NCBI RefSeq assembly: GCF_048403405.1
Contig: NZ_CP183129.1
DNA length: 64,000 nucleotides
Origin: Escherichia coli
Lineage (GTDB): Bacteria; Pseudomonadota; Gammaproteobacteria; Enterobacterales; Enterobacteriaceae
Reading direction: 5' to 3' (one strand)
Translations under genes and position numbers: made by a program
The notes under the pieces: model-generated
Database searches by the model: none
What the model saw: only the letters and a program-made list of their open reading frames with translations
Told to the model about the DNA's origin: nothing
In this document: one piece after another, positions 56,636 to 57,904 of the stretch
Position numbering within the stretch: the first letter of the stretch is position 1
Layout of the letters: each line of letters starts with the position of its first letter

Positions 56636-56800
56636 GGAGATGACGCAACTCATTGACATCCTCCACGCCCTGAAGGACGTGGATCCCTGCTACGTTCAGG
56701 CTGTCGCCTGAATCATTTCGGTGGGTTCCTGCTTCAACGGGCGGCCTGACTGCACCATCCCTCCACAGGCAAGAACGGCGTGCCCCGCCGCTAAAATGTT
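56636..56800 (-). ncRNA. predicted omega RNA (right-end element RNA) of TnpB; extent approximate
   Basis: Inference from family architecture: omega RNA overlaps the tnpB 3' end, runs through the right end (hairpin 56663-56682) and ends in a flank-derived guide, predicted here as 5'-GAGUUGCGUCAUCUCC. Not directly visible as a gene. Confidence 0.3.
56663..56682. repeat. right-end subterminal imperfect palindrome of the IS
   Basis: CCACGCCC-tgaa-GGACGTGG, one mismatch in the stem; near-identical to the left-end copy. Confidence 0.75.
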
Positions 56801-57904
56801 ACGAGCGCCATTTACATCGGCGTTCGCTGTATATCCACATACCTGGCATCTGAATTTACTTTGTGACAGGCGATTTTCTTTCGCTGTATGACCACAGCAC
56901 GCGCAACGCTGGCTTGTGTACGCTGGCGGAACAGCAAGCACCTGACCGCCACGCCAGAGCTGCTTGTACTCAAGCTGGCGGCGCATTTCATACCAGCCCT
57001 GATCCAGTATCGAACGGTTTAAACCTGATTTTGCCCGGACATTGCGCCCCGGCTGGCTGACCGTACCCGCTGCTGACTTTGACATGTTACTGACCTTCAA
57101 ATCCTCAATGACTATCATTGCGTGGTTTTTGCTGACGGTCGTTGTGACTTTGTGAAGGTAGTCCCTGCGGATATTTGCGATACAGGAATGCAGTCGCTGT
57201 ATTTTGCGTTTCTGCTTCTGCCAGTTGTTGCTGAATTTGACCTTGCGGCTTAACTGTCGCTGAAGTCTCGCCAGCGTCTTCTGGTTTTTCTGAAAACTGT
57301 TTACAGGCTCAAAGACTGTGCCATCTGACAGCGTGGCGAGTTTAGCCACGCCAGCATCCAGCCCGACCATTGATGCTGAAGGGTGAACCGGAGTTGATAC
57401 TTCACTTTCTGTCTGAATACTGATGTACCACTTACCGCAGGACTGGCTGACAGTGACATTTTTCACAACACCCGTGACCTGACGGCTATTCCGGTAGCGC
57501 ATCCAGCCAAGTTTCGGCAGAAAAATACGGCTGTTTTCCTGATCGAGCTTAACGCCCTGCGGGTAGCGGAATGCATCATTCTGTCCCCGCTTTTTGAATC
57601 GGGGAAAAGCAGCCCGCTTCTGGAAGAAGTTTTTGTAAGCCCGCTCAAGGTCTTTCAGTGACTGTTGCAATGGCTGTGACGGGGCATCTTTAAGCCATTG
57701 CGTTTCAGTGGCATTTTTCCACTCAACCAGCCAGGAAGCCATTTTCCCGTAAGGGATGTATTTATTACCGGCCTCATGATTCTCATTCTGAAGCGCCAGA
57801 GCACGATTGAAAACGAAACGACATGCGCCTGCGAAGCGCCTCATTTCACGCTCCTGTTGACCACCGGGTCTTAACTGGAATTTAAATGCCTGTAGTCGTT
57901 TCAC
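56696..57904 (-). CDS. tnpB: TnpB (OrfB), RuvC-like RNA-guided nuclease of IS200/IS605 family
   Basis: 402-aa ORF; Ruv[12 protein letters not shown], Ruv[14 protein letters not shown], zinc finger CACCGH...CQVCGY, Ruv[14 protein letters not shown]; no frameshift or internal stop. Confidence 0.9.

Follow-up and report, generated by a model that had tools for sequence, protein, structure and literature searches.

A complete IS609 copy in Escherichia coli yajI with an intact tnpB, a predicted omega-RNA matching the empty site and a damaged tnpA

Is the tnpB gene that interrupts yajI in an Escherichia coli chromosome part of an RNA-guided nuclease system, and would its guide point back to the site that the insertion disrupted? 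The initial annotation of the stretch of DNA analysed here, 64,000 nucleotides long and referred to as the window, had answered both with a candidate TnpB nuclease and a guide taken from yajI. The window is E. coli chromosome with nusB-ribH-ribD-nrdR, an interrupted yajI and then tsx and yajD, and yajI has been split by the catalogued E. coli IS609 (IS200/IS605 family, divergent tnpA/tnpB), present in full length. We consider it likely that this copy has a complete TnpB together with an omega-RNA and a flank-derived guide directed against the empty allele, and a cis TnpA that is probably inactive. The features are collected in Table 1.

The identity and the borders of the element follow from comparison with other copies and with an empty yajI allele. 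The window element is 98.7% identical over 1748 bp to the IS609 of EDL933, a copy whose tnpA is named 'IS200/IS605-like element IS609 family transposase' in RefSeq, and the tnpB of IS609 copies is labelled 'RNA-guided endonuclease InsQ/TnpB family protein' there. The empty allele (L001) reads ...ACGCAACTCA|ATAAAGAAAC..., with CAACTCA directly before the junction, which places the junctions at 56652|56653 and 58400|58401 without any target-site duplication, and the two yajI fragments of 130 and 410 nt add up to 540 nt, which is as long as an uninterrupted yajI coding sequence. On the tnpB (minus) strand the order is LE (high coordinates), tnpA (reverse), tnpB and RE (low coordinates), and the copy has what characterizes IS609, that is a subterminal hairpin near each end of one strand, no inverted terminal repeats, insertion 3' of TTAT and no duplication. 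Exact matches to the IS609 end hairpins occur in the window only at the two ends; a match with one mismatch at 49739 sits in unrelated sequence and was set aside as chance. When 56400-58900 was compared by megablast with 5426 complete E. coli genomes, strain TUM14771 matched at 100%, with two places matching the query (the best place per record is listed), and the internal 1.75 kb matched many other chromosomal and plasmid sites. The 1748-bp element is also present at five other E. coli sites, namely ydcO (BL21), yedK, the yeaR side, a tetR-like gene and a plasmid.

Table 1. Features of the IS609 copy in yajI, with positions in the window.
Feature	Position	Strand	Basis or remark
yajI 5' fragment, 130 nt	56523..56652	+	Interrupted by IS609
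Predicted 16-nt guide, 5'-UGAGUUGCGUCAUCUC	56637..56652	-	Junction compared with empty allele
Complete IS609 copy, 1748 bp	56653..58400	-	Junctions compared with empty yajI allele L001
Transposon-encoded motif TCAA, last four RE bases	56653..56656	-	Takes the place of the TAM after insertion
Predicted omega-RNA scaffold core, 118 nt	56653..56770	-	Rfam resemblance, conservation, pair counts
RE subterminal hairpin, UCCACGUCC-UUCA-GGGCGUGGA	56662..56683	-	
Long hairpin P3/P4	56685-56725	-	
P1+P2 (RAGATH-18-like)	56727-56769	-	
tnpB (insQ), 402 aa, GTG start	56696..57904	-	Single ORF, no internal stop or frameshift
tnpA ORF, Y1/HUH transposase	57912..58439	+	Canonical 143 codons are 57912-58340
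LE subterminal hairpin, CCCCGUCC-UUCA-GGGCGGGG	58365..58384	-	
TAM 5'-TTAT (window plus strand ATAA)	58401..58404	-	Eight independent insertion sites
yajI 3' fragment, 410 nt	58401..58810	+	Interrupted by IS609

Judged by its reading frame and its residues, tnpB of this copy encodes a catalytically complete TnpB (InsQ). The uninterrupted 402-aa protein that had been noted at the outset was confirmed as one ORF. It contains the Pfam domains HTH_OrfB_IS605 (PF12323) at residues 1-48, OrfB_IS605 (PF01385) at 162-277 (E=2e-34) and Cas12f1-like_TNB (PF07282) at 304-370 (E=6e-24), and it scores 388 bits, against a cut-off of 100, with NCBIfam NF040570, 'RNA-guided endonuclease TnpB family protein'. 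With phmmer it matches the PDB entries of ISDra2 TnpB (8bf8/8exa/8h1j) over residues 3-376 (E=1e-54). In the alignment to ISDra2 the RuvC triad D183 (GLDAG), E267 (IEDL) and D363 (NADVNGA) falls on D191, E278 and D361, and the zinc finger CxxC...CxxC consists of C334/C337 and C353/C356; RuvC-I, RuvC-II, RuvC-III and the cysteine motif had all been correctly assigned by the initial annotation, and the check for mutated catalytic residues that it proposed found the triad intact. The functionally critical residues given in PMC12781874 are present in 10/10 cases at an offset of +2 (N33, G181, D183, E267, L269, C334, C337, C353, C356 and D363), and in the same study an IS609-type TnpB was outside the strongly trans-cleaving orthologues, a point against the nuclease reading. 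The protein is 98% identical to EDL933 InsQ and, in a comparison of nine E. coli copies, shows no amino-acid change of its own.

Compared with EDL933, where TnpA is intact at 143 aa, codon 71 of tnpA (58122-58124) is AAC (Asn) in place of CAC (His), and the stop TAG has become CAG at 58341-58343, by which the ORF is extended by 32 codons through LE into yajI. The product still reaches 143 bits with NF033573, a model for IS200 transposases (cut-off 55), and has Y135 and Q139, with the second HUH histidine being Asn. Among the nine copies compared, H71N is private to the window copy and the stop loss is common to most, and in TUM14771, which matches identically, PGAP annotates tnpA as a pseudogene. 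Because of H71N in the HUH motif and the lost stop, the cis TnpA of the yajI copy is probably inactive; excision in cis is then doubtful or unlikely, and its own transposase would seldom or never restore the empty site. Only 7 bp (57905-57911) separate the divergent starts of tnpB (GTG) and tnpA (ATG), which means that each promoter lies inside the other gene, unless the starts are wrongly annotated. IS609-type derivatives that have tnpB without tnpA are found on viral contigs (L024-L027, L054, L067) and plasmids (L008, L009), and in these the left-end sequence and TTAT lie about 85 nt upstream of tnpB.

A working nuclease would require a guide RNA, and we looked for its scaffold by comparing the tnpB 3' ends of plasmid homologues (94% to 34% protein identity) and 51 viral-contig loci. 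The nucleotide conservation passes the tnpB stop codon and breaks off precisely where RE ends, beyond which each site has a different, unrelated flank. The 118-nt core is kept down to 43% protein identity, the level of a Polaromonas homologue in which the blocks GCCUGUGGAG, GUUGAAGCAGGAACC, GGAAUCC and GGAGGAUGUCAA are retained and the hairpins between them have a different sequence yet still fold. Scaffold positions 1-75 coincide with the final 24 codons of tnpB plus its stop, and the RE hairpin followed by the 3' tail GGAUGUCAA closes the predicted omega-RNA core; this hairpin would serve twice, in single-stranded DNA for recognition by TnpA and in RNA as the last stem of the scaffold. An extra upstream stem, GGCG/CGCC at about 56777-56789, is tentative.

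The pairing was counted for a named structure of five helices and 34 pairs on 28 distinct, equal-length and gap-free 118-nt scaffolds. Paired cells made up 95.2% against 35-45% in slid controls, a figure that is inflated by the structure having come from one of the counted sequences, and cells with double changes numbered 22 compared to 6.2+-2.1 in shuffles (0/500 reach the observed value). Compensatory changes are found in helices 2, 4 and 5. For helix 5 the covariation has a second possible cause, since TnpA requires the same hairpin in DNA; helices 2 and 4 are located within the coding region or directly behind it, and their G-C to A-U exchanges argue for a constraint at the level of RNA. 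An alignment of distant homologues with MAFFT/RNAalifold was dropped because the middle hairpins were mis-aligned, and the count on the named structure was used instead. One polymorphism belongs to both molecules: the base behind the Glu/Gly variation at TnpB residue 382 (codon 56759-56761) also forms omega-RNA position 11, and this position covaries with position 31 (56740) as G-C, A-U and G-U, from which the C-terminal tail of TnpB appears to be shaped by RNA pairing. The P2 loop (GUCAGGCC, 56745-56752, minus strand) repeats the 5' strand of P3 (UUCAGGC, 56706-56712), and it could pair with the 3' strand of P3 as an alternative fold or a pseudoknot.

The search with RNA models that the initial annotation had proposed gave a divided answer, in that three TnpB-linked Rfam families match at the locus and none of them reaches its gathering score. 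In a permissive scan of the minus strand, RAGATH-18 matched 56726-56769 with 28.1 bits against a gathering score of 44.9, HgcC matched 56640-56763 with 23.8 against 50 bits, and sot0042 reached 17 against 88 bits, and we use these sub-threshold matches as resemblance and not as membership. At the gathering threshold the whole window yielded sraA and SRP RNA only, with no omega-RNA family at the locus. All three families have been linked to tnpB 3' ends (PMC11061315, PMC4615843), and the UUCA tetraloop known from sotRNA/HgcC (PMC4615843) is carried by the RE hairpin here.

For expression of such an RNA the surroundings are less favourable. A promoter scan upstream of the scaffold found no minus-strand sigma-70 consensus promoter for the omega-RNA or tnpB, and no E. 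coli sRNA at insQ was found in the literature. Transcription from the yajI promoter runs into RE from the opposite side, convergent and antisense, which counts against the omega-RNA reading. A weak terminator-like hairpin with a U-rich tract lies at 56615-56630 on the minus strand, 22 nt past RE and antisense to yajI; it could end an omega-RNA precursor, or be there by chance.

The guide and its target can be read from the two junctions. Read along the tnpB strand, the site runs flank-TTTAT | LE ... tnpA (reverse) ... tnpB ... RE-GGAGGAUGUCAA | UGAGUUGCGUCAUCUC, and the predicted guide, whose length of 16 nt is taken by inference from ISDra2 (PMC8612924), is antisense to the yajI codons for E-M-T-Q-L and occurs once in the window. 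A guide derived from the yajI flank next to RE, as originally proposed, is thus supported by the junction; its placement at 56636-56651 was one base off, the guide starting with U at 56652 and not with G at 56651. TTAT is found directly 5' of LE at 8/8 independent sites (six in E. coli and two in viral contigs), and is also the TAM used for an IS609-type TnpB (PMC12781874 Table S2). Directly before it the insertion sites have T, C or G, and at yajI the base at 58405 makes it TTTAT. The TAM first suggested, TTATC, has to be shortened to TTAT, its 'C' being the first base of the left end of the element. The claim that the guide would target the restored empty site holds for TTAT+TGAGTTGCGTCATCTC, which is found exactly in the empty allele L001 at 538-557(-), and fails for the literal TTATC+GAGUUGCG..., which is absent from it. 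The earlier reading is in this way partly supported, right in kind and one base off at each junction; it had also missed the catalogued identity as IS609, the H71N change and lost stop of tnpA, and the sharing of the insertion by 340 genomes. At the occupied site TCAA replaces TTAT, and the element does therefore not target itself.

Put together, these observations suggest a mechanism that follows the donor-joint logic of Karvelis et al. 2021 (PMC8612924) and Meers et al. 2023 (10.1101/2023.03.14.532601). IS609 has inserted 3' of TTAT in yajI, the last ~120-140 nt of tnpB and RE would encode the omega-RNA scaffold, and read-through into the flank would add the guide to it. The TnpB-omega-RNA complex could then recognise TTAT and the 16-mer, which is the donor joint or the empty yajI allele, and a cut there would be repaired from a sister copy so that the element is restored, with the occupied site being spared through its TCAA. 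If the cis TnpA is inactive, the nuclease would act only on empty alleles that come from a TnpA in trans or from recombination. The sequences themselves show what the element is and where it ends, its TAM and guide register, the catalytic residues of TnpB, the conservation and covariation of the scaffold and the exact match to L001; the transcription and processing of the omega-RNA, the nuclease activity and the function in retention we infer.

A tnpB that outlasts a working tnpA and stays at one fixed place in the chromosome could also have been domesticated in the manner of TldR, so that TnpB and its omega-RNA would be an RNA-guided DNA binder or regulator without nuclease activity, and exapted relatives of TnpB are known from just such settings. 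However, the three RuvC carboxylates and the zinc finger show no loss, the protein hardly differs from the IS609 consensus TnpB, which mobile copies carry too, and the guide is plain flank, as at every other insertion site, with no fixed non-flank guide seen. Neither of the two marks of TldR, loss of RuvC residues and a guide unrelated to the transposon flank, is present in this copy, and we regard domestication as very improbable.

A nuclease system in the sense outlined above has more reason to be weighed against the idea of a fossil, in which the copy is an immobile relic of its lineage, its tnpB is open only by recency, and no TnpB or omega-RNA is made or acts here. The same junction in yajI is found in 340/5426 complete E. 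coli genomes, so the insertion is unexcised in those, and tnpA is damaged in all same-site copies examined. Three of the others (L020-L022) have tnpA lesions of their own, namely an internal TGA at 58198, the loss of 1 bp at 57999 and a change of the start ATG to ATT, none of which is present in the window copy. Their tnpB encodes 402 aa in two and 385 aa in one, L021, where a premature stop at codon 386 again speaks for decay, as does the lack of a sigma-70 consensus in the promoter scan above. Against this, tnpB is full-length in 4/5 same-site copies although these differ by up to 1.8% (98.2-100% identity with a 601-nt junction probe), the window TnpB is without private changes, and the RNA scaffold is unbroken and matches that of other copies without a difference. 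The variants point the same way: among the nine E. coli copies, a small sample, codons 1-360 of tnpB have 23 synonymous and 31 non-synonymous variants (omega about 0.38, binomial P=6e-4), and tnpA has 6 synonymous and 13 non-synonymous ones (omega about 0.64, not significant), a bias towards synonymous variants in tnpB that tnpA does not show. These counts fit the common pattern of tnpB outliving tnpA, and we think it unlikely that the copy is such a relic. The window tnpA lacks the TGA of its nearest same-site relative, and the variants are mosaic across copies, which suggests gene conversion between IS609 copies.

A lineage at one site with tnpA variously damaged and tnpB open and constrained is a convenient natural case in which to ask whether TnpB is kept independently of transposition. 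We hypothesize, as a doubtful extension of the joint reading, that tnpB and the omega-RNA of IS609 are kept by selection at fixed sites after tnpA has decayed, as a self-preserving and gene-drive-like guard of the occupied allele. If this were true, such a guard would destroy empty yajI alleles that arrive by recombination or horizontal transfer, and would be more than a back-up for transposition.

Published work already covers IS609, its protein family, the principle of the guide RNA and the donor-joint model of targeting, and the yajI copy shows no departure from known IS200/IS605 biology. The importance of the locus is slight beyond its correct annotation, since RefSeq already labels the gene as an RNA-guided endonuclease, and the practical result is a corrected design for this copy, with TTAT as the TAM, UGAGUUGCGUCAUCUC as the guide and 56653-56770 as the scaffold.

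The closest known systems are the IS609 of EDL933 and the insQ copy of K-12/BL21 next to ydcO, which have 98.2-98.7% nucleotide identity to the window over the 1748 bp. The EDL933 and BL21 elements share with it the InsQ/TnpB (98%), the hairpins of LE and RE, the TTAT target and the divergent layout; the window copy differs from other IS609 in its site, yajI, and in the private H71N of TnpA. The stop codon of tnpA is TAG in EDL933, whereas the window copy has CAG like BL21 and most copies. ISDra2 TnpB of Deinococcus radiodurans (PMC8612924) has the same architecture and catalytic residues, and there too the guide RNA overlaps the 3' end of tnpB and RE and takes its guide from the flank, but its TAM is TTGAT and not TTAT, and the gene layout is different from the divergent one of IS609. 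The wild-type TAM of the ISGst TnpB from Geobacillus stearothermophilus, TTTAT, is identical to the pentamer at the yajI site (10.1101/2023.03.14.532601); ISGst belongs to another host and sequence family, and it has been put to experimental test under the donor-joint model, whereas the IS609 copy is known here from its sequence. In IS608 of Helicobacter pylori (2a6m/2vjv) the TnpA fold and active site align with those of the window TnpA (E=3e-19), H64/H66/Y127/Q131 corresponding to H69/N71/Y135/Q139, and its RE also ends in TCAA. IS608 however targets TTAC and has co-directional and overlapping tnpA and tnpB, and the second HUH histidine is Asn in the window copy. The RAGATH-18-derived reRNA of IS607 TnpB (PMC11061315) resembles the predicted scaffold in that the P1/P2 core CCUGUGGAG...GUUGAAGCAGGAA matches the ends of the consensus, with an internal stem of 17 nt here versus 44 nt. 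In that study RAGATH-18 occurs only with IS607 TnpB and outside the ORF, whereas the similar structure of this IS609 copy is part of the coding sequence of an IS605-type tnpB.
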